DNA from: a virus
Lineage: Duplodnaviria; Heunggongvirae; Uroviricota; Caudoviricetes
Length of the DNA stretch: 64,000 bases
Reading direction: 5' to 3' (one strand)
IMG/VR virus record: IMGVR_UViG_3300027734_000034
Position 1 is the stretch's first letter. Every line of letters begins with the position of its first letter. The translations under genes were made by a program, and so were the position numbers. This document shows, in pieces, positions 1,257 to 62,336 of the stretch. The notes beneath the pieces were generated by a model. The model saw only the letters and a list, made by a program, of their open reading frames with translations, made no database searches and had not been told where the DNA came from.

Positions 1257-2258
1257 TTAAGCAGCCTTTTGGCGACTACGAATCATCGCCAAAATATCTT
1301 GTGCTTTGTCACTTGATGTATTTGCTGCTGGAACAACTACTGGAGCACTAGTGAAAGATGCTTCTGCTGCCGCAACATCATCTTCCCATGCGGGAGTATT
1401 AGTTGCTACTGGTGCAGTACGAACTGGCAATGCTGATTCAGTTACTGAACCTGCTGGAGCATCTAAGCCCCATGGGCGAAAGTAGTTACCCCAACGTTCG
1501 TTGTCGTAAGGTTGACCATCTACTGATGCCTCAAACATTTCTTTCATAATGCGTAGTTCAGCTTCACCTGGCTTCTTAGGCAAGAAGTCACTAAGATTAA
1601 ACAATCCATGTGCTTCAATTGCTGCTTGTTCAGCCTCAGTCAATGCTGTTTCTCTACGTGCCCAGTTACTTGTACTGTAATCTGCATATCCACCCTTACT
1701 AGACTTCTTAATATTGAAGTCAAGACCGCGAATATAGTCAGTTGGCAATTCCATGATTTCAGGATCAAGTAATCCACTCTTAACGATTGGGATGATTTGC
1801 GGGCTGATAACGAATCTACGAATTGGATTCGCAGGAGTCTTGTCATCACCCAATGGGTTTTGACGCACAAAGCCTTGAAAAATGTAACTACGCTTTTTCC
1901 AATACTTGTTAGCCATTTCTTTCAATGTCTCATCTTTGTACCAAGGACGAACCTCAGCCAAGATAGGGCATGTAGAACCATCGTTATACATTTCTACGCA
2001 TGGAACTTGTACAACTAATTGTTTTGCTCCACTGTCACCTTTAACTCCATTGAATGGAAGTTTGATGATTTGTTTTTCTACCCAGAAAAATTCGTTCTTG
2101 GAATCACCATCGGGCAAGAAACGAATACTAGCAGTAGTGCCTTCGTCCATGTTCCAGTGGGGGTAGATAGAATTATCTGATTGGGTTGTAGAACCCTTGT
2201 TGTTTGACTTATTGTCTTGCGCTGCGATACGTGCGCGGATATCTGCTAATGATGCCAT
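1257..2258 (-). CDS. 32: gp32-like single-stranded DNA-binding protein
   Basis: ASIRFLPDG resembles T4 gp32 AVIRFLPSK; Cys/His-containing segment CVEMYNDGSTCP at equivalent position of gp32 zinc site; Ala/Asp/Glu-rich acidic C-terminal tail typical of gp32; located next to uvsX-like gene. Confidence 0.5.
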   Translation of the reverse strand: MASLADIRARIAAQDNKSNNKGSTTQSDNSIYPHWNMDEGTTASIRFLPDGDSKNEFFWVEKQIIKLPFNGVKGDSGAKQLVVQVPCVEMYNDGSTCPILAEVRPWYKDETLKEMANKYWKKRSYIFQGFVRQNPLGDDKTPANPIRRFVISPQIIPIVKSGLLDPEIMELPTDYIRGLDFNIKKSSKGGYADYSTSNWARRETALTEAEQAAIEAHGLFNLSDFLPKKPGEAELRIMKEMFEASVDGQPYDNERWGNYFRPWGLDAPAGSVTESALPVRTAPVATNTPAWEDDVAAAEASFTSAPVVVPAANTSSDKAQDILAMIRSRQKAA

Positions 2259-2337
2259 ATAAATATTCCTTATAAATTTGAGATGGTCTCGTTTTTAAAT
2301 TCGCTACTTCACCATGAAGTAACTAACACGATGAGTA

Positions 2338-2365
2338 AGTATAGCATACTTTCTCAACCTGTCAA
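2338..2365 (-). promoter_or_regulatory. sigma70-type promoter TTGACA-N16-TATACT upstream of gene 32
   Basis: Minus strand TTGACAGGTTGAGAAAGTATGCTATACT; a GATAAATAC box lies 3 nt further upstream (2368-2376). Confidence 0.45.
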
Positions 2366-2387
2366 TAGTATTTATCTTTGTTATGGC

Positions 2388-2412
2388 AAACCTCACCTTT
2401 TAAGTGAGGTTT
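2388..2412. other. hairpin AAACCTCAC-N7-GTGAGGTTT between gene 32 promoter region and upstream gene end
   Basis: 9-bp stem seen in sequence; T-run only on plus side. Confidence 0.3.
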
Positions 2413-2430
2413 TTGATAAGTAATTTACCC

Positions 2431-5226: not shown

Positions 5227-5230
5227 AATT

Positions 5231-5239
5231 GTATTTATC
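5231..5239 (-). promoter_or_regulatory. GATAAATAC motif 5 nt upstream of ATG of 931-aa gene
   Basis: Minus strand AAGATAAATACAATTATG. Confidence 0.3.
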
Positions 5240-5245
5240 TTAATC

Positions 5246-6799
5246 TCAACTTAGTACGGCAAAGAATGGTAGTGGAGCAATGAATTCCTCGTGGTCCTTA
5301 ACATAACTGTCTAATTCAAAGTGATATGAACCTAATTCCTGTATCATTCTGACAGATAATAAGCTGGCCATAATCAAGTCGTCCGTATCCCCAACTTTAG
5401 CAGCATAACTACCCGCATGTGCTACAAACGCTTTTAATTCGCTGATAAGACTACGACTATTTACGGTTAGTTTCTTGCTTTCAAGCAATGTCTTAAACTT
5501 AGCGCAAGCAGTTAATTTGCTCTTATTTGTTGTATTGAAACCTTTACGCTTCTTTCCAGGTTCACTGATAAAAATTCCTGGAATATTATTCTCTCCATAT
5601 TCGTTTAATGATACCAATGCTGCTTCGCCAATACTATTGTTCTCTACACTATAATAGACATTGTTTGGTTCATTTGTACATTCAACAATATACTTGTTTA
5701 TCTGAGCCATTAGTTTAATCTGTGTTGGGATATCAGTTTTATTGTGCTTCCATTCACCAACTTGTGTAACTGTATTTGCCTCATATATTTGTATAGCAGC
5801 TGGGTCATTGCCTGTGCCAATACTAGGGTCTAATGCTACTGTATAGATATTGCCTTTGACTGGTTTCTGATACCAACGAACTTGCCCCATTCTACTTACT
5901 GGTTCTATACCCTGTAAATCAAGCAATGTGTTTGGATTAATAAGTGTTTCATCTGCAATAATGAATTCACAACCAATTTCACGACGGAATCTATCTTCAC
6001 CTAATTGTGCTTTCATTTCATCAGCCCACTTTTGGTCTCTGCCAGGTTGTTCTTGCCAGTCTGCTCTATATGCTTTGAATCCGTTGATACCTAGTTCTGT
6101 TGTGTTACCAAATTCATCTTCAGTTTTGTTAGCACCTTTCCAGATGAAAGCAAATTGATCCTCATCACTATTTGGGGTACTTGTGATAATTGCTTTACCA
6201 CCAGTACTTAATGTTGGTGTAATGGCTGTCCAGAATTCTTTAGCGATACTTGGTCTAACGAACGCAAACTCGTCTAGGTATAACAATGTAATAGACATAC
6301 CACGACCTGTATTTTCAGTAGTAGTTGCAGAAACAATACGACTACCATTTTCAAAGTCTAATGAGCCTTTGTTATAAGTTGTTACACCTGCTTTGATATA
6401 GTCTGGGCAGTTTTCATATGCATAACGAACACGCTGCATAATTTCTTGTGCGCCTGTGTATTTGTGTGCTGCTATAAGAATAGTACTGTCTGGTACAAAC
6501 ATAGCATACCAAAGTAAGTACCCAGCTGCACTAGTTGATTTGCCTGATTGTCGAGGCATTAAACTGATACTGTAGCGATAGTTATGATATGTGTTAATTA
6601 ATCGTTTCTGATAGTCATAGGGATGATACACCATACTTCCCTTAGTAGGGTGTTGTATCATAAAGAAGTTATCCATGAAGTATAGATAACCTGTGTCAGG
6701 GTCGCAACACTTTATAAAGTCCTGTAATTCCTTATCGTTCTTAAATTTTGTTTTAGTATAAGGATCTTTTACTAGAGATGCTTGACCTGTTTTATTCAT
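5246..6799 (-). CDS. 17: terminase large subunit (gp17-like)
   Basis: Walker A MPRQSGKST, Walker B LLYLDEFAFV, overall colinearity with T4 gp17 ATPase region (YHPYDYQ..., IAAHK, KGS..NGS). Confidence 0.8.
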   Translation of the reverse strand: MNKTGQASLVKDPYTKTKFKNDKELQDFIKCCDPDTGYLYFMDNFFMIQHPTKGSMVYHPYDYQKRLINTYHNYRYSISLMPRQSGKSTSAAGYLLWYAMFVPDSTILIAAHKYTGAQEIMQRVRYAYENCPDYIKAGVTTYNKGSLDFENGSRIVSATTTENTGRGMSITLLYLDEFAFVRPSIAKEFWTAITPTLSTGGKAIITSTPNSDEDQFAFIWKGANKTEDEFGNTTELGINGFKAYRADWQEQPGRDQKWADEMKAQLGEDRFRREIGCEFIIADETLINPNTLLDLQGIEPVSRMGQVRWYQKPVKGNIYTVALDPSIGTGNDPAAIQIYEANTVTQVGEWKHNKTDIPTQIKLMAQINKYIVECTNEPNNVYYSVENNSIGEAALVSLNEYGENNIPGIFISEPGKKRKGFNTTNKSKLTACAKFKTLLESKKLTVNSRSLISELKAFVAHAGSYAAKVGDTDDLIMASLLSVRMIQELGSYHFELDSYVKDHEEFIAPLPFFAVLS

Positions 6800-6843
6800 A
6801 ACTTTATTTATGTGGATAACTACCCAATTATATAATTAGGTAA

Positions 6844-11610
<4,767 letters not shown>

Positions 11611-20234: not shown

Positions 20235-20454
20235 AAACTGTTTCAGCTTTTTCTACTAAATCACGCAAGCTAGGTTCTGTTTCAGATAACTTGAGTATGT
20301 CTTTCCAAGTAAACCATCTTTGAGTAACTTTTGTTAAAGGGTCCTCTTGTAACAAAGTACGGACAGACGATCCACTCTCTCGGGAGTAGATCGTCTTACC
20401 ATGATCAGGGCTTTCTAATACTTTACCTTTATACTCATCAATTTGTTTCATCAT
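20206..20454 (-). CDS. hypothetical protein. The track ORF extends to 20559 and overlaps the upstream gene; the likely start is MKQIDEY at 20454.
   Basis: Internal ATG pair at 20454/20451 just after upstream stop. Confidence 0.35.
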   Translation of the reverse strand: MMKQIDEYKGKVLESPDHGKTIYSRESGSSVRTLLQEDPLTKVTQRWFTWKDILKLSETEPSLRDLVEKAETVYALLKEENN

Positions 20455-21733
20455 ATAGTGCAAAAGTACCGAATGGGGGATTCGGATTTTTGTCACCATG
20501 AATGATCCAAGTTGTATCACAATAATCAGGGTCGCCCCAGCTACCACAGGGATATCCATCAGTGAATACGATCAATCGTTTAGGATCAATTGCATTTTCT
20601 TTCAAGTATTCAAAGATACAATCAAAGTCAGTACCACCACCACCTTGTGGTTCATACTCATCAATAGTATCCATGCTATCGCTATTGAAGTCTTGTGGAT
20701 TGTAAGTATTAGTATCAAAGCAGAATACATGGACCTTGTATCCATCAAACGCATCCATCATGCCACCGATCTCACCCAAGAATGCTTGTGCTTGACTGTT
20801 GCTAATACTACCACTCATATCAAGTGATACAACAACATCAATTTCTTCACCGGGGTTCATGCCGGGCATGATAGCATCCATGTGCCAACCTCTGCGAGAA
20901 GGGCGCATCCAAGAATAATCTGCACGGATAGCACTAATCAGATTAGTCTGAATCAGTTCGCGCCAGGGCATGACTGGGTCAGTATGTTGTTTGATTAAAC
21001 GCTCGACACCTAAGGGCAACTGACCGGCTTCGCAAGTACTTGCGGCGCTGATGATTGCTTGTTTCATTTCTTGACGCAAACGCTCACGCTCTTCGGGAGA
21101 CATTTTAGGACGACCTTTGCCATTGGCTTCTTTGTCGCCATCACCATCTCCATCGTTATCTCCCTCACCTTCATCTTCAAGGTGATCGTCAATCATTTGA
21201 TCCAGCAAACTATCAATATCAATATGCTTGACATTCTTCATCAAGTCATCATAGATTTCCTCGCTGGGCTTACCATCATACTTGCGTTCGTACAAGCATG
21301 GGACACTTGTAATAAATGTGCCGACACCGTGTCGTTTCAAGTCTGCGTTAACTGCATAGTCATTGGCGATGTTAAACATCTGAGGGTCACGATTGCCGAT
21401 ACGACCCATATGATCATACACTACATGCAATACTTCATGTCCAACTAGAAACTCAACCTCTTTGGGTTTCAATAGCATAATGAAACGGCTATTGTAATAG
21501 AATTTTTGACCATCAGTAGCCGCTGTAGCGCACCACTCGTCAGCATTAGTTAATTTGAGGCGTGTAGCAAGATTGCCAAAGAATGAATGACGCAATAGCA
21601 AACCCACACGTGCCGAAATCAATCGTTCACGGGCTTGTGCATCAATCTTAGGGTCAGTAGGTCCAACAAGTTTATCAAACTTGTCGCTACGCTTTTTCTT
21701 TTTTGTTGGGGCAATTACGCTACTCATATACAA
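20438..21733 (-). CDS. VWA-domain protein with N-terminal HExxH metallopeptidase-like domain (CobT/NorD-like partner of AAA+ ATPase)
   Basis: HEVLHVVYDH motif; MIDAS motif DVVVSLDMSGSIS; adjacent to MoxR-like ATPase. Confidence 0.55.
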   Translation of the reverse strand: MYMSSVIAPTKKKKRSDKFDKLVGPTDPKIDAQARERLISARVGLLLRHSFFGNLATRLKLTNADEWCATAATDGQKFYYNSRFIMLLKPKEVEFLVGHEVLHVVYDHMGRIGNRDPQMFNIANDYAVNADLKRHGVGTFITSVPCLYERKYDGKPSEEIYDDLMKNVKHIDIDSLLDQMIDDHLEDEGEGDNDGDGDGDKEANGKGRPKMSPEERERLRQEMKQAIISAASTCEAGQLPLGVERLIKQHTDPVMPWRELIQTNLISAIRADYSWMRPSRRGWHMDAIMPGMNPGEEIDVVVSLDMSGSISNSQAQAFLGEIGGMMDAFDGYKVHVFCFDTNTYNPQDFNSDSMDTIDEYEPQGGGGTDFDCIFEYLKENAIDPKRLIVFTDGYPCGSWGDPDYCDTTWIIHGDKNPNPPFGTFALYDETN

Positions 21734-21754
21734 TCCTTTATCAAATATGCTGTA

Positions 21755-21783
21755 TTATAGCATACAAATTATTTTATAGCAAG
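21755..21783 (-). promoter_or_regulatory. sigma70-type promoter TTGCTA-N17-TGcTATAAT (extended -10)
   Basis: Minus strand cTTGCTATAAAATAATTTGTATGCTATAATacagc; 22 nt upstream of ATG at 21733 with RBS AAGGA. Confidence 0.5.
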
Positions 21784-21817
21784 TAAAAAGAGTGAGAATG
21801 TTCACACCATTCTCACC
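21784..21817 (-). terminator. rho-independent terminator after AAA+ ATPase gene
   Basis: 8-bp stem GTGAGAAT/ATTCTCAC with 9-nt loop, followed on minus-strand RNA by UCUUUUUAC. Confidence 0.5.
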
Positions 21818-21825
21818 CATAAACT

Positions 21826-22932
21826 TTAGTTACCTGCGTCTACAATGTACTTGCCGTACTTCTTGTGGAAGTCATCAAAGTGTTTTAGTTGACTAGGCTC
21901 AATCGGCAACTTGTAAGTCTTAAGCGCAATCTTAGCACCCATCACAACCAATTCAGTTTCAAAGTTCTTCATCATGTAAGACAAGAAATTGTCAGACATT
22001 TCATGGAACTTCTTCATAGTTACCTTTTGATGTTCCAATGCATCACGCAATTCATAGCACAATGAAATTGTTAGTGAATACATTGCAGAGATTTCCTTAA
22101 CATTCAAGTCAGTAACTTTACCTGACAAGATATCGCTCGGCTCGGGCAACTTGCCAGAAATCTTGCGGTGTGCAGAAAACTTAACAGCAAGCCCTTCACC
22201 GACACTACCTGCAATCAGATTGAACAGTGTATCAGTATCAGTGTCTGCCTCGTCATCCAACAAGTCAGACACAAAGCACCAGCTACGTGGGGTAGCAAAT
22301 GCACGGCTTGAAGATTTGCTATTGAAATCGTACAAGTCCTGTTTTGCAAAACTCAAGTAACCAACCACGTCCTTATGAATGCCTTTGTTGACTGCCCATG
22401 TCTGCCATGAAGTAAAGTCAGGGCGCATTTCCAAGTGCAAGAAACGATTAGCAAGGGGCATCGGCATACGATAAGTAACACCTTTGTCACTATCACGATT
22501 ACCTGCTGCCACGATAACAACATTGTCAGGCAACTTGTACTTACCAACACGGCGATTCAAAATTAGTTGATAGCCAGCAGCCTGTACAGCAGGCATTGCA
22601 CTATTCATTTCATCTAAGAAAAGAACAATGATAGGATATTGTGATGCGAGTTCCTCGTCAGGCAAGTCGATTGGAGCAGCCCAATCCATCTTATTGAGGT
22701 CCTTGTTGAAGTATGGGATACCGCGAATGTCAGTGGGTTCCATTTGAGCCATACGCAAGTCAATCATATGACCACCAAGTTCGGCAGTAATGTCTGCTAC
22801 AACTTCGGATTTACCGATACCGGGAGGGCCCCAGAGAAACAAGGGACGCTTTGCTTTGAATGCTTTCAGAATAGCTTTGCGGGCTTGTACTGATGTTACT
22901 GTGAGATTGTCAGAGACTTGAGGTGATGCCAT
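21826..22932 (-). CDS. MoxR/CobS-like AAA+ ATPase
   Basis: Walker A LWGPPGIGKSEV; Walker B IVLFLDEMN; size 368 aa; paired with VWA protein. Confidence 0.6.
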   Translation of the reverse strand: MASPQVSDNLTVTSVQARKAILKAFKAKRPLFLWGPPGIGKSEVVADITAELGGHMIDLRMAQMEPTDIRGIPYFNKDLNKMDWAAPIDLPDEELASQYPIIVLFLDEMNSAMPAVQAAGYQLILNRRVGKYKLPDNVVIVAAGNRDSDKGVTYRMPMPLANRFLHLEMRPDFTSWQTWAVNKGIHKDVVGYLSFAKQDLYDFNSKSSSRAFATPRSWCFVSDLLDDEADTDTDTLFNLIAGSVGEGLAVKFSAHRKISGKLPEPSDILSGKVTDLNVKEISAMYSLTISLCYELRDALEHQKVTMKKFHEMSDNFLSYMMKNFETELVVMGAKIALKTYKLPIEPSQLKHFDDFHKKYGKYIVDAGN

Positions 22933-22975
22933 TATTAACTCCTATATGTTAGTGGCTTGCTTGAAAAGAAATTCT

Positions 22976-23004
22976 ATTATATACGAAAACTGATTTGTTG
23001 TCAA
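22976..23004 (-). promoter_or_regulatory. sigma70 consensus promoter TTGACA-N17-TATAAT
   Basis: Minus strand TTGACAACAAATCAGTTTTCGTATATAATA; the -10-proximal part TATTATATAC matches the 24-kb promoter repeat. Confidence 0.5.
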
Positions 23005-23030
23005 TCGTGATTGAATGTTTTGGGTAAACA

Positions 23031-23450
23031 TTATTCCTCAAACGCGCGGCGCAGAATCAACTCTTGGCGACTGAAGGCTTCAATCTCCCAGGGTTGGTCC
23101 AAGTAAGGTGTTTTCTTGCTGTACTTTTTACCTGCCCATGTATGACCATGCTTACCTTGTTTCAATGTACCTTTTGCAAACTGTTTCACATGGACCAATT
23201 CATGCGCTAGGGTGAGGCCAATTTGATACAGACTACGATGGGGTTTGATGACTACCAGATATGCACCAGTGTACTGTGATAGGTCGAGTGTCAAGCCTGC
23301 ATTGTCACCTTCGCATTCATCATATACACGGATAAGCAATGCTTTGCGGCAACGCTCAAGACCAAGCTGGGTAATCATTGAAGGAAGTAGTGCCTCAACA
23401 AATTTTTTATTACGGCGACTACCTTCAACTTTGATTTCCATCATAATCAT
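23031..23450 (-). CDS. small HExxH protein (SprT-like zinc-metallopeptidase motif)
   Basis: LAHELVHVKQF motif in 139-aa protein. Confidence 0.35.
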   Translation of the reverse strand: MIMMEIKVEGSRRNKKFVEALLPSMITQLGLERCRKALLIRVYDECEGDNAGLTLDLSQYTGAYLVVIKPHRSLYQIGLTLAHELVHVKQFAKGTLKQGKHGHTWAGKKYSKKTPYLDQPWEIEAFSRQELILRRAFEE

Positions 23451-23474
23451 ATATTTATTTCCTAGAGTAATTTA

Positions 23475-23690
23475 TTACTCAATCAATTCCGACAATTTAC
23501 CAATGTATGTTAATTCGCTAGGTTCGTACCATGCAGCCTTTTGTGTAGAATTGTCAGGCAATACAATGCTAACCTCACCTCTACTGTTAACACTGTCTAC
23601 AACTGTTATTGTTTTAAATTTTGTCATAACCACATCAAGCGGTTTAAATTTAAACTTTTCCGTTTTCATTACATGCTCCAGTAAATTCAT
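23475..23690 (-). CDS. hypothetical early protein (71 aa)
   Basis: ORF only. Confidence 0.4.
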   Translation of the reverse strand: MNLLEHVMKTEKFKFKPLDVVMTKFKTITVVDSVNSRGEVSIVLPDNSTQKAAWYEPSELTYIGKLSELIE

Positions 23691-23706
23691 TGAAAATGAT
23701 TAAATC

Positions 23707-23985
23707 TTAAGAGGACCAAAAAGTTTCGCTAGCAGGGGAACAGCACAGGGGAGTGTTAACATCTTCCTGATATTCGATACCGCTCATGAGGTTCTTGCGA
23801 GTTACCATGTTAGGCTTGTAATGCTGAGTGTTTACGATACTCAGTTCACCGGCAGACCAACCTGACTTGTTGCACAGACGGGTGCGAGTAGCACGGGCTG
23901 CCGCAAAAGTTTTGTATGCACGGGTACGATTAGAACCGTCAGTAACGATAAGACCAGTACCACGGGCGATAACATAATAAGACAT
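23707..23985 (-). CDS. hypothetical early protein (92 aa)
   Basis: ORF immediately downstream of consensus promoter P1. Confidence 0.45.
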   Translation of the reverse strand: MSYYVIARGTGLIVTDGSNRTRAYKTFAAARATRTRLCNKSGWSAGELSIVNTQHYKPNMVTRKNLMSGIEYQEDVNTPLCCSPASETFWSS

Positions 23986-24019
23986 TTAGAAATTCCTTTA
24001 ACTAACTGATTAAGACTCT

Positions 24020-24048
24020 ATTATATACCCAAAACCATTTAATGTCAA
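24020..24048 (-). promoter_or_regulatory. consensus sigma70 promoter TTGACA-N17-TATAAT (repeat copy 1)
   Basis: Minus strand GTTGACATTAAATGGTTTTGGGTATATAATA; the 31-bp plus-strand core TATTATATACCCAAAACCATTTAATGTCAAC is found three times. Confidence 0.6.
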
Positions 24049-24052
24049 CTGT

Positions 24053-24280
24053 TTACGCACAGATTTCAAACAACATTTCGCTACTGGAACCGTTGACTAC
24101 ACGGACTTTTTTGTCATTAACCATGATGTAGCCATAGTTGCCGTTATCATAGATACCGTGAGGGCAGGGTTCAATCGTCACTTTACGGATAATTTCACAA
24201 AAACCCCAACGCTTAGTAGGCAACTTACCTTGAAACAATCGCATGTTTTCAAGGGAAGTAATGAGAATTTTTGCTTTCAT
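24053..24280 (-). CDS. hypothetical early protein (75 aa)
   Basis: ORF downstream of promoter repeat copy 2. Confidence 0.45.
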   Translation of the reverse strand: MKAKILITSLENMRLFQGKLPTKRWGFCEIIRKVTIEPCPHGIYDNGNYGYIMVNDKKVRVVNGSSSEMLFEICA

Positions 24281-24313
24281 AATCTACTCTGTTCGTTGAC
24301 TGTCTAAGTATGT

Positions 24314-24342
24314 ATTATATACCCAAAACCATTTAATGTCAA
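24314..24342 (-). promoter_or_regulatory. consensus sigma70 promoter TTGACA-N17-TATAAT (repeat copy 2)
   Basis: Identical 31-bp core; extended 50-bp similarity with copy 3 (TTGACTGTCTAAG...). Confidence 0.6.
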
Positions 24343-24425
24343 CCGAAATATTGAGTGTGTACGATTACCAAAATGGCTATATATGCTCCGACCACGATCC
24401 CAACTAGCATTCCAAGAAAAAACAT
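24339..24425 (-). CDS. possible 28-aa hydrophobic peptide (MFFLGMLVGIVVGAYIAILVIVHTQYFG)
   Basis: Strong RBS AAGGAGTAGGAG before ATG at 24425; single predicted TM; stop overlaps promoter -35. Confidence 0.3.
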   Translation of the reverse strand: MFFLGMLVGIVVGAYIAILVIVHTQYFG

Positions 24426-24435
24426 CTCCTACTCC

Positions 24436-24693
24436 TTACGCAAATTCGTAGAATTTAACAGTAGGATCCAACTTTTGTAGTTCTTTTGCAGCCTGTGACA
24501 ATGCACGATGCTTGGCCTGAACCTGACTACGGGGCAGTTCACCGTCACAGGTCAAGTTCTCAGGGCTGAGGTCGCTGTCCAGACAAGCAGCAACTACCTG
24601 ACGACCTTTAGCAGTCTGTATCTCATACTGAGGACCTTTGAACAATTTGTTCCATTTGTTCTTTTGATCAATGTATTTTTGCAATGCTGACAT
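24436..24693 (-). CDS. hypothetical early protein (85 aa)
   Basis: ORF downstream of promoter repeat copy 3. Confidence 0.45.
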   Translation of the reverse strand: MSALQKYIDQKNKWNKLFKGPQYEIQTAKGRQVVAACLDSDLSPENLTCDGELPRSQVQAKHRALSQAAKELQKLDPTVKFYEFA

Positions 24694-24726
24694 AATTAAC
24701 TCCGTTTGTTGACTGTCTAAGCCTCT

Positions 24727-24755
24727 ATTATAGACCCAAAACCATTTAATGTCAA
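24727..24755 (-). promoter_or_regulatory. consensus sigma70 promoter TTGACA-N17-TATAAT (repeat copy 3)
   Basis: Minus strand GTTGACATTAAATGGTTTTGGGTCTATAATAG. Confidence 0.6.
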
Positions 24756-24757
24756 CC

Positions 24758-25549
24758 TTACGGGGCTAGCCCTTCCCTAGTTTTTGCACGTTTTACATTC
24801 GCATAAAGTACAACTTGAGTTGGAACCGGTGCTAAATATCTCTTTACCCAAGACCTGTAAACACCATATTTAAAATATATCCCATTGCCTTCAGTTGTTT
24901 TTCCTTTGAAACTATATTTCAAAATTCCATTTGCATAGACTTCAAAAAAGCCATCGTCCAAATTAGACCATTTTGCATGGACTTCAATTTTGTTCCAATT
25001 TCCAAGTAACTCCTTATCAGTTAGTATGGTTACATATTCTTGTGTTGCACATCTATGGTGTCTATCTATAGTTAGCCCACCTCGCAATGCTCCCCATCCT
25101 GCACTATTTTGAAACATGAATGATGAGCAAGTGGGACTGTCAATAGCCCCATCAATATTATAAAATTGTCCTAAGGTGACATTGACGGGCCACACATTGA
25201 TATGGTCTTTGGGTACAAAAATAGACCATCCATACCAGTATTCAGAGTTTGAGTAATTATTTCTATCTGTTGATATCTCAGAACGTTCCCTACTTCCAAC
25301 CCTAGATCCAGTTTGACCTTCAATAGAACAATCTCCCCCTGAACATTCTCCGCTTCTGACTTCAAATCTTTCAACCATTTTCAATGGTGCAGAGCCCGTT
25401 GGATCAGATACTATTTGATATCCGTGCGGTGTTGTACTATTTGATCTAGTGAACTCCTTAAGGTTTCCATGATCAAGTGAATTAGCGGAATTAGTAGCAC
25501 AGCCACCAATCAATAATATTAAAATAATTGATATAAAAAGTTTTTTCAT
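24758..25549 (-). CDS. secreted lipoprotein, PL7 alginate/polysaccharide-lyase-like
   Basis: Lipoprotein signal MKKLFISIILILLIGGC; RSEISTD (cf. PL7 RSELR) and IYFKYGVYRSW (cf. PL7 YFKAGVYNQ). Confidence 0.4.
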   Translation of the reverse strand: MKKLFISIILILLIGGCATNSANSLDHGNLKEFTRSNSTTPHGYQIVSDPTGSAPLKMVERFEVRSGECSGGDCSIEGQTGSRVGSRERSEISTDRNNYSNSEYWYGWSIFVPKDHINVWPVNVTLGQFYNIDGAIDSPTCSSFMFQNSAGWGALRGGLTIDRHHRCATQEYVTILTDKELLGNWNKIEVHAKWSNLDDGFFEVYANGILKYSFKGKTTEGNGIYFKYGVYRSWVKRYLAPVPTQVVLYANVKRAKTREGLAP

Positions 25550-25576
25550 AATAACTACATCAGGAAATAAAAACTT

Positions 25577-25605
25577 AGTATAGCATTGAATGTATTTATT
25601 GTCAA
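25577..25605 (-). promoter_or_regulatory. sigma70-type promoter TTGACA-N17-TATACT
   Basis: Minus strand TTGACAATAAATACATTCAATGCTATACT upstream of lipoprotein gene. Confidence 0.5.
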
Positions 25606-25611
25606 GGTAGG

Positions 25612-25635
25612 AATGCCCTAAATCAATAGGGCATT
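25612..25635 (-). other. hairpin AATGCCCTA-N6-TAGGGCATT immediately upstream of promoter -35 (possible terminator/insulator)
   Basis: 9-bp perfect stem seen in sequence; no U tract on minus strand. Confidence 0.3.
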
Positions 25636-25648
25636 ATTTGAGTAAGAA

Positions 25649-25918
25649 TTACTTCTTAGGTGTGTTTTGATTTACAAAAGCATACATCTTTTCAGCAGTG
25701 TCCAAAACTTTTTCAAGTCCTGGAAATTCAGGCATGTCTACTTTGGTTATGATCTGACCAGTAGCACTATCCTTGGAAGCAGTCATCTGCCATCCTGAAA
25801 ACTTCATATGGAAATCTTCCATGACTAATGATTTAGCCATGTCCAAGATATCTGTACGAATCTCGTAGCCGTTCTTGTTGAATTTTACTTCGGGTAATTT
25901 TGGTGTGAAATCTGACAT
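25649..25918 (-). CDS. hypothetical protein (89 aa)
   Basis: ORF only. Confidence 0.4.
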   Translation of the reverse strand: MSDFTPKLPEVKFNKNGYEIRTDILDMAKSLVMEDFHMKFSGWQMTASKDSATGQIITKVDMPEFPGLEKVLDTAEKMYAFVNQNTPKK

Positions 25919-25955
25919 AATAATCTCCTTGTGTTAATGTCGGTGTGTGAATAGC

Positions 25956-26201
25956 TTATTTTTTCGCAGTCTTTGCCTTGACTGTTTCATCCTCACCTTG
26001 AGAATAAATCGTTTTGTTCATACTGTCAACAGTATAAGACAACATCTCTATTGTATTCTTTGCCATCATCTTTGCAAAGATCGTTTGGGCATCTATAAAG
26101 TCGTTGGCGACCTTATTCAATCTCTCGTCTTTGAAAATCTGATTGGTTGCCATCCTTTTTGAAGTCTGGAACATCTCTATATAAAAATCTGGTGTAAACA
26201 T
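25956..26201 (-). CDS. hypothetical protein (81 aa)
   Basis: ORF only. Confidence 0.4.
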   Translation of the reverse strand: MFTPDFYIEMFQTSKRMATNQIFKDERLNKVANDFIDAQTIFAKMMAKNTIEMLSYTVDSMNKTIYSQGEDETVKAKTAKK

Positions 26202-26334
26202 AATTATCCTTTAAATATCACTTGTCATTAGTTTTTGTGCAGCAGCATATTGTCCTCTACGGGCAAGGTACGATGCTGCACGGACGCGACCCACTTCTTT
26301 TAGAAAATTGTAAATTGATTTAAAGATGTTCATA

Positions 26335-26520
26335 TTACACCATCCAACTCTTATTACGTGCTGAATACAATAATTCAAATTGACGCTCTAATTGTTCAAC
26401 TTGTGCGGTACTCGTGGGATTGTGTGATACGATGTATCGTTCTAGTGCTGAACCGTATGACTGGGGTTCACTGAATTTTTCTAATAGGCTATAAAGATAG
26501 CCGGTAAATCGTTTTAACAT
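26335..26520 (-). CDS. hypothetical protein (61 aa)
   Basis: ORF preceded at about 50 nt by perfect TATAAATAC box (26571-26579). Confidence 0.35.
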   Translation of the reverse strand: MLKRFTGYLYSLLEKFSEPQSYGSALERYIVSHNPTSTAQVEQLERQFELLYSARNKSWMV

Positions 26521-35637: not shown

Positions 35638-35654
35638 GTGTGTATTATAGTCTA

Positions 35655-36113
35655 CTATTTAGTTTTTGTCAACTTGACTTCTTCCAAAAACATATCAGGA
35701 TTGGAATTGATGTTAGAGAATAGTAGTGGGTTATTAATAGTAAACGGGAGAAACTTTGACTTTACTTTTCTGATAGTATCATATGGGTAATTGACAATTC
35801 TATCAGCAACAAACTTTTCTAGGTCCTTGAGGTTAATTCCATGTACTGGATCTAACCATTCTAGTTTTTCATTGCTTAGTTCAAGCCTATATTCTGCCCA
35901 TTCTTTTTTAACGTATCGTTCTAAATCTTTAATCTGATGAATATCACCATAATATAGATTACAAAACTGTTGTGCAGCCGCAACGTGGTTAGAATATTCT
36001 AACAGTCTGTCAACGGGTAGATCCCTGAGTGTAATACCATATCCAAGCACAAGAGTTTGTGCTTGGATAATGTTATAGAACCACCCGTGATTAGAGAGTG
36101 TAGTTACCGACAT
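35655..36113 (-). CDS. hypothetical protein (152 aa)
   Basis: ORF only. Confidence 0.4.
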   Translation of the reverse strand: MSVTTLSNHGWFYNIIQAQTLVLGYGITLRDLPVDRLLEYSNHVAAAQQFCNLYYGDIHQIKDLERYVKKEWAEYRLELSNEKLEWLDPVHGINLKDLEKFVADRIVNYPYDTIRKVKSKFLPFTINNPLLFSNINSNPDMFLEEVKLTKTK

Positions 36114-37404: not shown

Positions 37405-37516
37405 TTTATTTTCCTTAAAAAAGTTTATATTGCTAAACACCATGTCTAGCAATAACTGCATTATACACGATTTTTTCTTTATTGTCAATAACTTTTTGGT
37501 TTATTTAACCAAATTG

Positions 37517-38035: not shown

Positions 38036-39023
38036 ACATTATATCAAAGTTATCACAGAATGTCAATGCCCAATCGTTCACAGCATCGTTCCAATAGTAG
38101 TCGCTATGTGCCCTAAGTTTCTGTTTGCTATGTCCATTTTCTAGCAAACGCTCCAACTCTGGGCGATCAGTAACGGAAAAGTCTCCGAGTACATCTTCGC
38201 GGCTAACACTGTAATGCATAGTAGGGCGAACACCCCGCCAACTGTCAATAACCCTTTTAACCCTGTCATCAGATGGGTCAATGTATTCTCCTTCACGTAT
38301 CCAATTATGGTGTATGTCCATGACCGTAGGCACGAGGTCAGATAGTGATAAGCAGTCAAGTAGTCCATGTGTATATTCCTCATTCTCTAGTGTAAGTGTG
38401 TTTCGGGCTTCGGGTGACAAACGATTGTACACATCACGAATGCCCTGTGGACCTTTACGACCACTGATGTGTACATTAACTTTGAAGTCTTGAAATGTTT
38501 TGCCATAGCCCATCCAACGAACCATGTCACAATGATATTCAAATTCTTCAATACTCTTATTTACTACTTCTTCACGGTCACTCGCTAAAACTACAAATTG
38601 GTCAGGGTGAAAACTAAGACGGACATCATTAGCCCGTGCAGTCTCGCCGATGGGACTGAACCATCGTGCTAGACTATCTTGCATTGTTTTATCTTGCCAA
38701 AAGTCTTGCCAACCATCCATTGTATAGAAGGGAAGCATGTCCGATGTAAGACGAACCATACGCAATGATGGTTCTAGTGATGACACTTTTTTAACTAGTG
38801 CATGAGTATTGAGAATGTTTTGCTTTGATACCTCAAGTATCTTTTCTTCTGCGGTGCTACGAGATTGTCTATTGATCCATGCACGGGTTGTACCGCCGGT
38901 GGTTAGTTCTCTGACAGAACAGACTTCACCTTTACTGTTTAGTTCACTAAATTTACAAGCAAAGCCTATGCGTTTGATAGATTGATTTGTCAAGATAAAA
39001 GTCCAAAGTGATAAATAATACAT
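37968..39023 (-). CDS. uvdE: UV damage endonuclease (UvdE/UvsE family)
   Basis: SFHPDQFVVLAS, NVHISG, LTLENEEYTHG, DIHHNW align with B. subtilis UvsE motifs SFHPNQFTLFTS, NIHVGG, MTLENDD, DYHHH. Confidence 0.6.
   Translation of the reverse strand: MYYLSLWTFILTNQSIKRIGFACKFSELNSKGEVCSVRELTTGGTTRAWINRQSRSTAEEKILEVSKQNILNTHALVKKVSSLEPSLRMVRLTSDMLPFYTMDGWQDFWQDKTMQDSLARWFSPIGETARANDVRLSFHPDQFVVLASDREEVVNKSIEEFEYHCDMVRWMGYGKTFQDFKVNVHISGRKGPQGIRDVYNRLSPEARNTLTLENEEYTHGLLDCLSLSDLVPTVMDIHHNWIREGEYIDPSDDRVKRVIDSWRGVRPTMHYSVSREDVLGDFSVTDRPELERLLENGHSKQKLRAHSDYYWNDAVNDWALTFCDNFDIMCESKAKNLASFKLFERYKNGTI
39010..39017 (+). promoter_or_regulatory. late-promoter-like box GATAAATA on plus strand 56 nt upstream of plus-strand gene cluster
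   Basis: GTGATAAATAATAC; same motif as minus-strand boxes. Confidence 0.3.
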
Positions 39024-39072: not shown

Positions 39073-40755
39073 ATGAGATTTACCGAATTTATATCTGAGA
39101 ACGAAAAGCCAGGATTATGGGCAAACATCCATGCCAAACGTGACCGAATCAAACATGGATCCGGTGAGCGTATGCGTAAGCCCGGAAGCAAGGGTGCTCC
39201 AACAGCAGATGCATTGAGAAAGTCAGCAACTGATGAAGCAGCTAATCCAGCACAGCAAGCAGCTATCGCTATCAATATGAAGAAGCATCATCAGAAGCCA
39301 AAAGGTGTGGCGGAAAGCGAGTTGGATAAATTTAAAAAGTATACCAGACCAGTTGTAAAGACTGAACCAAAGATCGAAAGAACAACTAATCCTGCAGGAA
39401 GAACAACTGACCATGTTGAATGGAAAGTTACAAGTCCGACGGGCGAGATTCACAGATATAAATCTAAAAAACAAGCACAAGAGCATTTTGATTCTTTTGG
39501 TCAGCAAGGTGTGGCGGAAGGCGACATGTATGGCGATCAAGAAGTAAGTTGGGAAAAAGGTGGTCGTAGAGCCCCAACTGGTGCATTTAAAAATCCTCAT
39601 ACCAGCGCATTAGGTCGAGCATTATATCGTGACCTCAGCAAGCAACCTAAATTAAGCCCGCAACAAGTCCAACGCAACAAAGAGCGTTGGGCACAGCGTC
39701 AAGCGGAGCGTGAGCAAGGTGTGGCGGAAGGCTCTGAAACACCACAACAGCAACAAGTTCGTGCTGCAATTACTAAAGGCATGGAAAAATGGGATAGTAA
39801 TAATAAGGCTACATATCAGAGTCAACCAACTAAAACTAATTATATGCCACCCAGCGGTTACGCTAGCGATTCATTGACAGGAGTAGATTCCATTGATCCT
39901 GATGGTACCGTGGTCATATCTCTTGGAAATACTGGTGCCGAAGCCACAATTAAAAAATTAGCAACATTAGGTGGTATGCCCGGCATTAAAACTAGACAAC
40001 TGCAATCACCAACCGTTTCATCTAGAGGTGTGGCGGAAGGCAGAAAGCCATTTCGTGATTTAAAATCTTGGGCTGACCACGCAAAATCACAAGGATTGAA
40101 AGTAAGCCCATCTGATCACATTGATTGGACACACGATGCTACTGATAAAGAAGGTAAGGTGCGTGGTAGATTTGTGACTACTAGTGTCCCACAAAATAGT
40201 CGAGGATTCATCCACCAGCAAGGTGTGGCGGAGGGAGAGAGTACTATTCTTTCTCCTGGAACACAAGTTACAGTACCTCACAAGGGAAAAATGGTTTCAG
40301 GTAAAATCGTTAGATATGATTCAGGCAAAGGTATAGAGTCCCCAGCATATATTGTTGATATCAGCGAATACGAATCACTCATCGTTCCAGTTTCTAGAGT
40401 GAAGCAAGACATGGATGAAGGCGAGAATTGGTCAAAGCACAATAACAAACGTGCAGGCGGGATGAGTAAAAAGAGTGTAGCCAGTTATCGCCGCAGTCAT
40501 CCTGGAAGCAAGATTCAAACAGCAGTCACAACTAAGCCTAGTAAATTAAAGAAGGGCAGTAAGGCAGCAAAACGCCGTGCTAGCTTCTGTGCTAGAATGC
40601 GTGGCATGAAGAAACATCGTACTGGTGCGAAAACAGCACACGATCCAAACAGCAACATAAATAAAAGTTTGCGTAGATGGCATTGCGAAAGTATTGAAGA
40701 ACTACACGAATTAGTAATGCTTGCCGAACAATTTATTAGGAACAATAAGAAATGA
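39073..40755 (+). CDS. CTS-bearing protein (N-terminus MRFTEFISE) with five QGVAEG repeats and basic C-terminus. Candidate internal head polyprotein.
   Basis: N-terminus resembles T4 IP capsid targeting sequence; repeats KGVAESE, QQGVAEGD, EQGVAEGS, SRGVAEGR, QQGVAEGE at about 70-100 aa intervals. Confidence 0.5.
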   Translation: MRFTEFISENEKPGLWANIHAKRDRIKHGSGERMRKPGSKGAPTADALRKSATDEAANPAQQAAIAINMKKHHQKPKGVAESELDKFKKYTRPVVKTEPKIERTTNPAGRTTDHVEWKVTSPTGEIHRYKSKKQAQEHFDSFGQQGVAEGDMYGDQEVSWEKGGRRAPTGAFKNPHTSALGRALYRDLSKQPKLSPQQVQRNKERWAQRQAEREQGVAEGSETPQQQQVRAAITKGMEKWDSNNKATYQSQPTKTNYMPPSGYASDSLTGVDSIDPDGTVVISLGNTGAEATIKKLATLGGMPGIKTRQLQSPTVSSRGVAEGRKPFRDLKSWADHAKSQGLKVSPSDHIDWTHDATDKEGKVRGRFVTTSVPQNSRGFIHQQGVAEGESTILSPGTQVTVPHKGKMVSGKIVRYDSGKGIESPAYIVDISEYESLIVPVSRVKQDMDEGENWSKHNNKRAGGMSKKSVASYRRSHPGSKIQTAVTTKPSKLKKGSKAAKRRASFCARMRGMKKHRTGAKTAHDPNSNINKSLRRWHCESIEELHELVMLAEQFIRNNKK

Positions 40756-41330
40756 AAAAACTACTAACGATACTTGCATTGACCTTCTTTGGTTCTGCAT
40801 TTGCCGGAGAGATTACAGTATGTGATGGACAGTATGCATTATGTGCTGCTAGTACTTGCAAACCAACTAACAAAACAATTACTGGTAATAACGGCGTAGC
40901 ATACCCAGAAGTAGAATGCCGTTGCCCAATACTTAAAGGTCGTGCTATCGCTGATACATCAGCAGGTAACATGCAAGGTTCATGTGCTGCAACTGATGAT
41001 AAACATGTTTGGAGTTTGTTTGCTCCTAAACTTTACTACCCACAAGAGGCTAGCAATTTTAGCAACAAACCAAAAGATAAAAAAGTAACTATACAAAAGT
41101 GTGATGCTAGTTTGAATCTAGGTGCAAAGTCTAGCAATTGCTTTAGTTGGAATTGTACGATAGGTAGTGATGGTATTGCACTATGCTCATGCCCAACTGG
41201 TCAAGTACCGGCAAATACTGCATTTTTAACAGAAGCAGGTCAAGGTAACCCAGAAGCATGTTCACAATACCCAGTAAGTTTACCAATCAAAGCGCAAGAT
41301 AAGGCTGAAGCTAAGGAAGCAAAAAAATGA
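40752..41330 (+). CDS. secreted Cys-rich protein (192 aa)
   Basis: Signal peptide MKKLLTILALTFFGSAFA; 14 Cys; start overlaps upstream stop. Confidence 0.45.
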   Translation: MKKLLTILALTFFGSAFAGEITVCDGQYALCAASTCKPTNKTITGNNGVAYPEVECRCPILKGRAIADTSAGNMQGSCAATDDKHVWSLFAPKLYYPQEASNFSNKPKDKKVTIQKCDASLNLGAKSSNCFSWNCTIGSDGIALCSCPTGQVPANTAFLTEAGQGNPEACSQYPVSLPIKAQDKAEAKEAKK

Positions 41331-43072
41331 ACTTTAAAGAATTACACGAAGGCGCAGAGCCAAATATGCCTGGTGCCCCTAGTGGCATCAAGATTATGAC
41401 ACCTCAGCAGTTCGTTGCTAGTGCAGGTGATTCAAAATCTGATGAAGAGGTATCAGAAGGCGGTAATGCATTCATGCCAGGCATACAAAATACGGCAGAA
41501 TACAAAGCAGGTTTTGCAACAGGCAAGTTACCAGTTCCATATCCTGAAGGTACACAACAATATGCTAGCTATTACAAAGGAGTGATTGATAAGTCTACCC
41601 CTAATTTAAATAAAGGTACAGCAGGAAATTCGTTGACTGAATTTGCCCCTAGTGATGACGGTGATGATGGATTTAGTGAAGAAACACTAAAAGGTCTTGC
41701 AGCGCAATGGTGGAATGGTGATGAAGATCCTCGTGTAGAAAAATTATTGATGGCTGCAGGTTGGGAGATTGGTCAAGATGATGGGTATGACAACGGTGGT
41801 GTGTTTGTGGTGCGAGCCGGTGATGACAGTGGTCATAGTTATCTCAGTTGGCCAGCAGAAGAACTAAATCCTAATTTATCAGAAACACATTTAAATAGAA
41901 TTCGTAGCTTATCTGGATTAGTTGAAGCAACTAAACTACCAGCACAAACTCGTGATTTGGATAGTCAAGAATTTCAAGACTATATGAAGCGTATCGTTGG
42001 TACACCTGATTTAGACAAAGAAGGTAATGTTAAAGTAGATAAAAAAGGTAACGAAAAGTATACTACTGGCAAGACCAAAGGTGACAAATACAAGATGCCT
42101 TACATCCATCGTAGTAGTGTAGTTACATACTTAAGCCCAGATGGTAAAACATATGATGAAGATGCAGTTAAACAAACATTAGCAATTCGTCCTAAATCAT
42201 TATTAAAGCAAAATGAAAAGATGAAACATAGCAATGGTGAGTTTGAACAATTCTTCAATGTTGGATTTGCAGCATTAGTAGGAATTGCATTAGATGAACA
42301 AACTAATAAATTAATCATTGTTAATACTTGTCCAGGCGCTGGCTCTTGTAAAGTAGAGTGCTTTGCTATGAAAGGCGGCAAGATTCAATTCAAGGCTGCA
42401 TGGCAAAGTGACGGAAGAATACTAACATATCTATTAAATGATCCTGATGGTTTCTTCAATCAACTAAGTAGTGAAATATCTGCTGAGGCACAAGCAGCAG
42501 CAAAGGGTGATAAGAAATTCCCTAATGGTTGGCAAACAACAGTTCGCTGGCATGATGCTGGTGACTTCTTTAGTCCAGAATATTTAGACATGGCATTGAA
42601 GATGGCTGCTAAACATCCTGATGTTAAGTTCTATGCTTATACTAAAATGGCTGGAGCAGCATTAGCGGATAAGCCAGACAACTTCATTATCAATTGGAGT
42701 GAAGGTGCTAACACTGCACAAGAGAAACAAATCAAAGCACAAGATCCTAAGTTAGATAAAACAAAGAACAGTCGCATCGTTCCAGAGAAACTATTCTATG
42801 ACTTATTGGCTAAGGACGAGAAGGGCAATTTAGCAAAGACTCCAGATGGTGCATGGCAACCTGCAGGGCCGCAAGAATTACAACAAATGAAACAGCGTAT
42901 TGCAACAGAATACGGTATTAGTGCTAACTCTATTTTGAGTTATACTGAGTACATGGCTAAGAGAAATTCAATCCCAGCTGGAATGAAGTACAATGTTATT
43001 GTTGCACCAGGTGAAGGTGATGTTAGTGCTAACGACCCAGGCGTACTAAGTACCTTATTGCTAAGACATTAA
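41327..43072 (+). CDS. large hypothetical protein (581 aa) with CTS-like N-terminus MNFKELHE
   Basis: ORF with overlapping start; weak similarity of N-terminus to MRxxEFxxE leaders. Confidence 0.45.
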   Translation: MNFKELHEGAEPNMPGAPSGIKIMTPQQFVASAGDSKSDEEVSEGGNAFMPGIQNTAEYKAGFATGKLPVPYPEGTQQYASYYKGVIDKSTPNLNKGTAGNSLTEFAPSDDGDDGFSEETLKGLAAQWWNGDEDPRVEKLLMAAGWEIGQDDGYDNGGVFVVRAGDDSGHSYLSWPAEELNPNLSETHLNRIRSLSGLVEATKLPAQTRDLDSQEFQDYMKRIVGTPDLDKEGNVKVDKKGNEKYTTGKTKGDKYKMPYIHRSSVVTYLSPDGKTYDEDAVKQTLAIRPKSLLKQNEKMKHSNGEFEQFFNVGFAALVGIALDEQTNKLIIVNTCPGAGSCKVECFAMKGGKIQFKAAWQSDGRILTYLLNDPDGFFNQLSSEISAEAQAAAKGDKKFPNGWQTTVRWHDAGDFFSPEYLDMALKMAAKHPDVKFYAYTKMAGAALADKPDNFIINWSEGANTAQEKQIKAQDPKLDKTKNSRIVPEKLFYDLLAKDEKGNLAKTPDGAWQPAGPQELQQMKQRIATEYGISANSILSYTEYMAKRNSIPAGMKYNVIVAPGEGDVSANDPGVLSTLLLRH

Positions 43073-61802: not shown

Positions 61803-62336
61803 ATGACAGTCAATCAAATTTTATTAAACCAATACTTTGGTACCATTTGGCATCAAAATAGCGATCCTTCCAAGAAGGATACTAAATCAGGGAAACAATT
61901 AATAGACAAAATTAATCCCGGTGAATCAGTACTAGATGTAGGGTGTGGAACTAATCCTTTTAAAGGAATCATTCCCAATCTAACTGGAATTGATCCGGCT
62001 TTTGACCAAGCAGATCACAAGATATCAATTGATGATTTTGAAACTAGTGAGAAATATGATGTTGCACTATGTCTGGGTAGTATAAATTTTGGAGGTAGTA
62101 GTGACATTGAGAGACAAATTGCCAAAGTCATTTCATTAATGAAACCAAATGGGAGAATATATTGGCGTTGCAATCCAGGAAGACAAGATCACCCTAGTGA
62201 TGAATGCAAAAATGTGCCTTTTTATGCATGGTCTATACAAGAGCATGAGAGACTAACTGCTATGTTTGAAGCACGACTGATTGAATGTTGTTGGGAAGAT
62301 AATGGTCGTAGAATATACGCTGAATGGAATCTTTAA
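61803..62336 (+). CDS. class I SAM-dependent methyltransferase
   Basis: Motif I SVLDVGCGTNPF. Confidence 0.5.
   Translation: MTVNQILLNQYFGTIWHQNSDPSKKDTKSGKQLIDKINPGESVLDVGCGTNPFKGIIPNLTGIDPAFDQADHKISIDDFETSEKYDVALCLGSINFGGSSDIERQIAKVISLMKPNGRIYWRCNPGRQDHPSDECKNVPFYAWSIQEHERLTAMFEARLIECCWEDNGRRIYAEWNL

Follow-up and report, generated by a model that had tools for sequence, protein, structure and literature searches.

Introduction

Why would a phage carry the same promoter-like sequence three times within 740 bp, each time in front of a different small gene? The question is raised by a 64,000-nucleotide (nt) stretch of IMG/VR virus record IMGVR_UViG_3300027734_000034 (Caudoviricetes). We call this whole analysed stretch the window, and all coordinates without a locus name refer to it. 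Its minus strand holds three near-identical copies of a 30-nt sequence between positions 23986 and 24757. An initial annotation, made from the sequence alone, described the copies as perfect sigma70 promoters of small early genes and proposed that these genes arose, or are maintained, by recombination between the copies. Having compared the region with related phage loci, we consider it likely that the repeat serves both as the head of an expression cassette and as a crossover point for recombination.

Promoter and leader in three copies

The 30-mer GTTGACATTAAATGGTTTTGGGTATATAAT (minus strand) occurs exactly at 24020-24049 and 24314-24343. A third copy at 24727-24756 (minus strand) has a single mismatch, with C in place of A at 24733, the final position of the spacer. 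Shuffled sequence leads one to expect no such match by chance. Each copy consists of TTGACA, a 17-nt spacer and TATAAT, with 12 of 12 hexamer matches in all three. Promoter copies P1 (24020..24048) and P2 (24314..24342) are exact instances of what we call the canonical 29-mer, and P3 (24727..24755) reads TTGACA-TTAAATGGTTTTGGGTC-TATAAT and begins 2 nt past the TAA of a polysaccharide lyase gene; all three are on the minus strand. The triplicate thus lies where the initial annotation had placed it, the third copy with its one mismatch.

Each promoter is followed on the minus strand by a leader and a small open reading frame (ORF). After P3 come the leader AGAGGCTTAGACAGTCAACAAACGGAGTTAATT (24694..24726), a predicted start region and stereotyped 5' untranslated region with a Shine-Dalgarno (SD) sequence (GGAG), and p85, an ORFan of 85 amino acids (aa; 24436..24693). 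P2 precedes the leader ACATACTTAGACAGTCAACGAACAGAGTAGATT (24281..24313) and the 75-aa ORFan p75 (24053..24280), and P1 the leader AGAGTCTTAATCAGTTAGTTAAAGGAATTTCTAA (23986..24019) and the 92-aa ORFan p92 (23707..23985). The ATG lies 33-34 nt past the -10 hexamer in the three copies, with an SD sequence before each ATG, so that every copy does stand directly before an ORF of 75-92 aa, as had been described. Profile scans assigned the small ORFs of the array to no PHROG or Pfam family, and no terminator-like sites were found between the three small genes.

Copies 2 and 3, for which an extended repeat had been noted, share 73 nt at 86% identity (24272-24344 and 24685-24757). This longer repeat corresponds to the promoter plus the entire 5' leader. 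The proteins p85, p75 and p92 fall into separate blastp families and are not paralogues; only promoter and leader are triplicated. In the whole window, perfect TTGACA-N17-TATAAT sites number seven against 0.08 expected, all on the minus strand, which carries nearly all window genes.

The element in related phages

Two sets of relatives were used. The exact 29-mer occurs in more than 108 IMG/VR phage stretches; the first set comprises 108 of them (L001-L108; 848 kb), and the second 80 loci fetched via the MoxR protein encoded next to the array (82-98% identity), independently of the promoter motif. Allowing up to 4 mismatches to the 29-mer, we counted 391 copies in the 108 loci and the window, 185 of them exact. 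Most loci have 2-8 copies; six sources have a single one. All copies within a locus point the same way (108/108 loci), and their median spacing of 330 bp implies one promoter per small gene. The cargo behind them forms 58 unrelated small-protein families (102 clusters at 90% identity), the downstream ORF has a median length of 86 aa, and its ATG lies 27-34 nt past the -10 in almost all of 371 cases.

Three copies inside 740 bp might be taken for the relic of a recent local tandem duplication in one genome, of no wider meaning. That reading has practically no chance of being correct. Homology stops at the -35 hexamer and the downstream genes are unrelated, and the exact 29-mer stands before 58 gene families in at least 108 stretches from many metagenomes; unrelated cargo and this wide distribution rule local duplication out.

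Conservation sets in abruptly at the -35. Upstream of position -6 the information content is about zero, and directly before TTGACA there is only a weak 'aa.gg'. The conserved stretch then runs through -35, spacer and -10 into the leader, A.A.tCTTA.aCAGTtAAttAAAGGA, and on to an SD consensus AAAGGA(G). Upstream ORFs stop within the -35 or 0-6 nt ahead of it: in 140 of 275 unique contexts (51%) the TGA of T-TGA-CA is the stop of the upstream gene (GGT-TGA-CA), which means that the promoter also provides the stop codon of the preceding gene. The spacer core is accompanied by the hexamers in 409 of 413 instances and the leader motif by a -10 in 197 of 197, so the element behaves as a single unit.

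Sites with at most one hexamer mismatch in the MoxR-anchored loci favour the gene strand by 59:1, 57:2 and 136:6. Together, the match to the sigma70 consensus, the gene-strand bias, the fixed distance to SD and ATG and the retention in relatives point to a promoter role, as first proposed. In the relatives, the repeat is present and promoter-associated.

It is very unlikely that a phage-encoded sigma factor or polymerase reads these sites and that their resemblance to sigma70 promoters is coincidental. Such a reader would be compatible with the extra wTAAAT after the -35, which most of the group's promoters share and which is not in the sigma70 consensus. Hundreds of sites with 12/12 hexamer matches at the optimal 17-nt spacing, on the other hand, are the signature of a primary sigma factor. 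The cultured phages nearest to the window by large terminase (TerL) are PA5oct, Atu_ph07 and Rak2-type jumbo myoviruses, and these are not known to carry virion RNA polymerases.

Constraint and uniformity

We compared orthologous pairs, defined by the same downstream family. Identity is 0.93 in the leader, 0.92 at second codon positions and 0.74 at third positions; the 40 nt upstream of the element reach only 0.48. For p85, the pattern over the three codon positions is 0.93/0.96/0.85.

The spacer of the cassette promoters changes with phylogenetic distance as measured by MoxR identity. At 90% or more it is TTAAATGGTTTTGGGTA, at 86-89% it is ATAAATCAnTTTGGGTc, and at 82-85% only wTAAAT is left. 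The promoter of the MoxR gene itself serves as an internal control. Within the clade of at least 90% MoxR identity its spacer drifts (mean pairwise identity 0.73) and its hexamers decay to TTGACG/TATACT, while the cassette promoters beside it in the same loci remain canonical. The uniformity of the cassette promoters is therefore more than shallow divergence, and the confinement of the canonical spacer to one clade points to concerted evolution. To judge from these alignments, the copies evolve in concert within a lineage.

Might the spacer and leader instead form an operator, through which a phage or host factor co-regulates the whole set? Candidate factors would be an early shut-off repressor, an activator or the preference of a modified polymerase, and uniformity would then reflect co-evolution and not recombination. 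Conservation at the 17 spacer positions and at some 20 positions of the leader goes far past the needs of sigma70 contacts. The copies of a lineage shift together, from TTAAATGGTTTTGGGTA to ATAAATCAnTTTGGGTc to wTAAAT, as a lineage-specific binder would give, and in these genomes the promoter of a core gene does not keep to this sequence. The element has, however, neither dyad symmetry nor hairpin potential, its spacer core is never free-standing, no candidate regulator was identified, and the chimeric promoters and transferred cassette described below show recombination acting on the copies. We regard an operator as unlikely; it would be compatible with the copies acting as cassette heads and crossover points.

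Recombination footprints

On the minus strand, the genes and elements of the region follow one another as p89, a stem-loop, promoter P', the 263-aa lyase gene, P3, p85, a 28-aa mini-ORF, P2, p75, P1, p92, p71, p139, a further promoter, and the MoxR and VWA genes. The lyase (PF14099; 24758..25549, minus strand) has a lipoprotein signal and is accessory cargo between P' (25577..25605, minus strand; TTGACA-ATAAATACATTCAATGC-TATACT) and P3. The mini-ORF MFFLGMLVGIVVGAYIAILVIVHTQYFG (24339..24425, minus strand) is hydrophobic, has its own SD sequence and ends in a TGA within the -35 hexamer of P2.

The most informative relative is L020, whose flanking proteins are mostly 87-100% identical to those of the window (two are at 68% and 75%). 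It has no lyase gene, and its p85 promoter joins TTGACAATAAAT, the 5' half of P', to GGTTTTGGGTC..., the rest of P3. The crossover of this P'/P3 chimera lies in TTGACAwTAAAT, precisely at the missing lyase, and TTGACAATAAAT marks the left junction of this indel. Also missing from L020 are the mini-ORF, P2 and p75. The promoter of p92 in this locus combines a P2-type leader start, ACATACTTAGACAGT, with a P1-type end, a chimera whose crossover lies in the leader, precisely at the missing p75.

Other loci differ in other ways. L087 has p85, p75 and p92 and is missing a segment of about 85 bp with the mini-ORF, an insertion that L020 also lacks; none of the fetched loci yielded a homologue of the mini-ORF. 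In L087, the promoter of p75 has a P3-type spacer and leader, which indicates a conversion tract. p75 is absent from L043 and L070 and p71 from L070, and no match to p71 was found in L043 or L020. L011, L072 and L018 have other cargo before p139. In some relatives p85 and p92 are missing from the array and other cargo is found there, with no junction mapped. Orthologues of p85 occur in 14 loci in varied neighbourhoods, and at least two distinct upstream contexts are seen in 32 of 42 families. Wherever a given gene recurs in a new setting, the element still borders it.

The lyase gene is absent from every fetched relative. Its slot is empty in L020, L043, L001, L027 and L092. In L104 (oriented 2091-3368) the slot holds a different gene, for a 425-aa lipoprotein, behind the same stem-loop and a P'-type promoter and ending in the TGA of the next -35. 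From the cargo compared so far, this looks like an accessory-gene slot for envelope- or capsule-directed proteins.

A cassette has also crossed between lineages. Locus L005 (IMGVR_UViG_3300032332_001516) has 48.8% GC overall and 47.6-48.3% GC in the flanks of a promoter-p75-promoter cassette that itself has 36.6% GC, is 96% identical to the window in nucleotides and carries two canonical promoters. Homology sets in at the -35 of the first promoter and ends 10 nt beyond the -10 of the second (window 24342..24010). The promoters native to L005 have GC-rich, variable spacers and the same layout of one promoter per small gene (oriented 3767-7100). Their leader is similar, ACAGCAACAAACAGGAGT. Across lineages, the leader appears from these comparisons to be more conserved than the spacer.

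The comparison of loci thus shows gain or loss within the array for p75, the lyase gene, the 71-aa gene and the 28-aa mini-ORF, as read from the aligned sequences. The proposal of a hyperplastic region shaped by recombination is borne out by whole-gene indels with junctions inside promoters, by chimeric promoters and by the transferred cassette; gain, loss and replacement between copies were all found when related phages were compared, as the initial annotation had suggested doing. Its further idea that the three genes arose or are maintained by recombination between promoters stands for cassette gain and loss. It fails for an origin by duplication, the cargo being unrelated.

An element on both sides of a cassette, one promoter-gene-promoter unit moved into an unrelated phage, and a slot with different cargo are also what sites of a dedicated site-specific recombination system, like integron attC, would leave behind. 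We think this highly improbable. The crossovers vary, lying in the 5' spacer for the lyase indel, in the leader for the p75 indel and over a whole conversion tract in L087, and such differing positions argue for homology-driven exchange and not for cleavage at a fixed site. Inverted-repeat structure is lacking, and no recombinase was seen beside the arrays in a search that was not systematic.

Proposed mechanism

We propose that the cassette head, about 60 nt long, combines a consensus sigma70-type promoter with a 17-nt clade-specific spacer and an unstructured leader that ends in the SD sequence and ATG. One head stands before each small ORFan of the variable region, with no terminators between copies. 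Host RNA polymerase holoenzyme would initiate at each of the heads, presumably shortly after infection. Every small gene would thereby have its own strong start and would also receive read-through from upstream, with transcription accumulating along the array; by analogy with T4-type phages, the small genes would be pre-replicative, that is, early.

The comparisons show that the copies, being dispersed, co-oriented direct repeats, are places where homologous recombination and gene conversion cross over. Exchange deletes, inserts or replaces promoter-gene units and moves them between contexts, even between phage lineages, and it would also keep the copies uniform within a clade (concerted evolution). 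The homologous recombination machinery of the phage or of the host would mediate these exchanges.

Comparison of the loci shows the leader to be constrained, the spacer to be clade-specific, junctions to be chimeric and a cassette to have been transferred. Several points weigh against the reading of the repeat as cassette head and crossover point. The consensus match and the analogy with T4-type phages are the grounds on which start sites, strength and early timing are inferred. The spacer identity of 0.945 is inflated, since the 108 loci were gathered with the exact 29-mer; this ascertainment bias does not touch the leader, the MoxR-anchored set or the MoxR-promoter control. Contacts of sigma70 alone leave the retention of the full 17-nt spacer unexplained. 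Homogenisation by recombination and selection by some factor are inseparable in these data, and insertion and deletion cannot be told apart for individual events. Finally, the exact 29-mer is missing from 185,579 reference genomes (GTDB representatives), which therefore give no clue to the host.

A more speculative view, and a rather unlikely one, makes the spacer and leader a recognition module, either for a phage factor that would turn the entire set of ORFans on or off or for cassette exchange via mini-circles excised and integrated at the promoter. In the exchange form, accessory genes ready for expression would be traded between co-infecting jumbo phages from different lineages in a promoter-based analogue of the integron. 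The low-GC promoter-p75-promoter unit within the 48.8% GC of L005 and the frequent use of the -35 TGA as a stop codon fit such a trade.

Comparison with known systems

The closest known elements are the promoter-early stem-loops (PeSLs) of the T4-type phage pairs RB49/phi1, PST/T4 and nt-1/KVP40 (Arbiol et al., 2010, PMC2839356; Comeau et al., 2014, PMC4122927). A PeSL consists of a stem-loop terminator, an AT-rich stretch, a sigma70-like early promoter and an SD sequence with ATG (PMC2839356, PMC4122927). The window array resembles them in several respects. Repeated near-consensus sigma70 promoters of early type close with the SD and ATG of the gene that follows. There is one per small ORFan, and they cluster in hyperplastic regions flanked by conserved modules. 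Where close relatives differ by an indel or a replacement, the junctions fall inside the elements, degraded or chimeric elements mark these junctions, and homologous recombination between copies is the proposed mechanism. As in the PeSL phages, gene content differs among relatives, here between the 89-aa gene and the 139-aa/MoxR block.

The differences begin with the stem-loop. Unlike PeSLs, the three copies and 263 unique upstream contexts show no stem-loop or terminator and, as a rule, no T-run. DNA folds of the three copies and the consensus are no better than shuffles (z-scores -1.33, 0.10, 0.93 and 0.27), the 47 nt upstream of the element fold to -6.65 kcal/mol in the 263 contexts against -6.33 kcal/mol in control coding sequence (p = 0.22), and a T-run lies upstream in only 6% of these contexts. 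The fold tests thus reject a true PeSL (stem-loop) identity for the three copies. Also unlike PeSLs, there is no conserved AT-rich upstream region, conservation beginning at the -35; the full 17-nt spacer and leader are near-invariant and clade-specific; and the phage is of an uncultivated jumbo type only distantly related to the T4-type phages, its TerL being about 48-50% identical to those of PA5oct-type and Atu_ph07-type phages. With the stem-loop absent, we file the element as a PeSL-like promoter-plus-leader variant and not as a member of the PeSLs.

The leader is less structured than its shuffles (-1.98 against -3.63 kcal/mol), which fits efficient translation initiation. A long-range pairing of GTTGAC (-35) with GTCAAC (leader) was considered and dropped: it exists in copies 2 and 3 only, is not significant and does not belong to the family consensus, in which CAGTTAA is commoner.

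A composite of stem-loop and promoter like that of PeSLs is found within the array only at P' and outside it at the MoxR/VWA junction. The stem-loop at P' (25612..25635, minus strand) has a 9-bp stem, lies just upstream of the promoter and past the stop of the 89-aa gene, and has a z-score of -2.67. It is retained in L020 and L104, with changed stem sequences.

The early 'uber' promoters of T4 (UP/-35/TGn/-10) match the host sigma70 consensus very closely, have extra conserved positions and are thought to out-compete host promoters right after infection (Hinton, 2010, PMC2988021). The promoters of the array share the strong consensus match and the conserved positions beyond the hexamers. They differ from the T4 promoters in lacking an UP element and a conserved upstream A/T tract, the former because coding sequence abuts the -35. 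TGn is also absent (the bases at -15 to -13 are GTA or GTC), the -35 is TTGACA where T4-type promoters have GTTTAC, and the extra conservation spans the full spacer and the transcribed leader.

The strong promoters of coliphage T5, described by Gentz and Bujard in 1985 and Kammerer et al. in 1986, are reported to have conserved spacer and initial transcribed regions, and their conservation into the transcribed region may tune late steps of initiation. Their sequences differ from the present element, and we offer this comparison as a lead only. With integron attC sites, finally, the contrast is plain: the element has no hairpin or inverted repeats, and its crossover point is not fixed.

Our literature search found the sequence of the element in no paper. 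The array is a solid example of a known principle and not a new kind of system, and strong repeated early promoters that double as recombination sites will not surprise phage specialists. What it adds is that promoter-mediated modular shuffling, familiar from a handful of T4-type phages in culture, extends to jumbo phages of a large uncultivated group represented by metagenome-derived viral contigs alone. The loci form an unusually clean natural data set, with a single 29-nt promoter present in hundreds of copies, at least 58 unrelated small genes behind them, mapped chimeric junctions and a transfer across lineages. The motif provides a search handle for accessory, probably host-takeover, genes of these phages in metagenomes. 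The copies are also a natural series in which to study the effect of the spacer and initial transcribed sequence on a consensus promoter, and synthetic biology could try out the element as a compact part made of promoter and leader.

Source phage

Proteins encoded in the window include a large terminase, tail fibres, a family-B-type DNA polymerase, and a MoxR-like ATPase with a DUF2201/VWA partner; the terminase, tail-fibre, DNA polymerase and MoxR-like ATPase genes identify it as phage DNA. TerL identity is 47-51% to the jumbo myoviruses Phosso, PA5oct and Atu_ph07 and 42-45% to the Rak2-like group, and related IMG/VR contigs reach 264 kb and 525 kb. By these affinities, the source is an uncultivated jumbo myovirus distant from T4-type phages. 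Megablast of 22500-26500 against 50,697 phage records returned zero matches, which indicates that no close cultured relative exists. Over the whole window (1-64000), ARAGORN found no tRNA genes and Rfam no family at gathering score.

For the T4 late-promoter motif TATAAATA the window shows no enrichment, with 3 sites where 7.3 would be expected. Late promoters in this phage are accordingly of a different type, and the motif is of no use for telling temporal classes apart.

Other promoters and neighbouring genes

The initial annotation listed four near-consensus promoters besides the triplicate. All four exist, and one of them required a shift by one position (from 21755-21783 to 21754-21782). 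They are, on the minus strand, a promoter at 2338-2365 (TTGACA-N16-TATACT), the MoxR/VWA junction promoter at 21754-21782 (TTGCTA-N17-TATAAT), preceded by a terminator-like hairpin at 21790-21818, the promoter of the MoxR-like ATPase gene at 22976-23004, and P'. The MoxR promoter, the internal control used above, has perfect hexamers and a diverged spacer and, as had been noted, shares part of the triplicated repeat, TCTATTATATAC. The motif search on the gene strand, proposed as a check, yielded the seven perfect sites, including three that had been missed at 35644-35672, 37460-37488 and 38038-38066 (minus strand). The stretch from about 2.4 to 21.7 kb, which holds the genes for the terminase, the tail fibres and other large virion proteins, is free of sites with one hexamer mismatch or none.

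In this phage group most promoters, those of core genes included, have wTAAAT straight after TTGACA. It is seen in the MoxR-anchored loci L109-L186 and in the window at 22976-23004, 25577-25605 and 37460-37488. On this alignment evidence, wTAAAT is an extended -35 feature outside the sigma70 consensus.

The perfect promoter at 35644-35672 leaves only 6 nt to the ATG (35637) of a 333-aa 5'-3' exonuclease (PF02739), a gap that predicts a leaderless mRNA. The same arrangement, TATAAT-ACAnAC-ATG with a protein start M..KYALID, also occurs in L019, L038, L043 and L099.

Adjoining the array is a conserved pair of genes (20438-22932, minus strand) for a MoxR-like AAA ATPase (368 aa) and a DUF2201 metallopeptidase/VWA protein (431 aa), with the terminator-like hairpin and promoter between them. 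A 139-aa HExxH protein (23031-23450) is encoded upstream of the pair.

Two places in the window run against the minus-strand genome. A lone ORF at 61803-62336 on the plus strand fits into a gap between minus-strand genes. The main opposing block is at 39073-43072 (plus strand), with three successive ORFs of 560, 192 and 581 aa, and the GC skew flips sign there.

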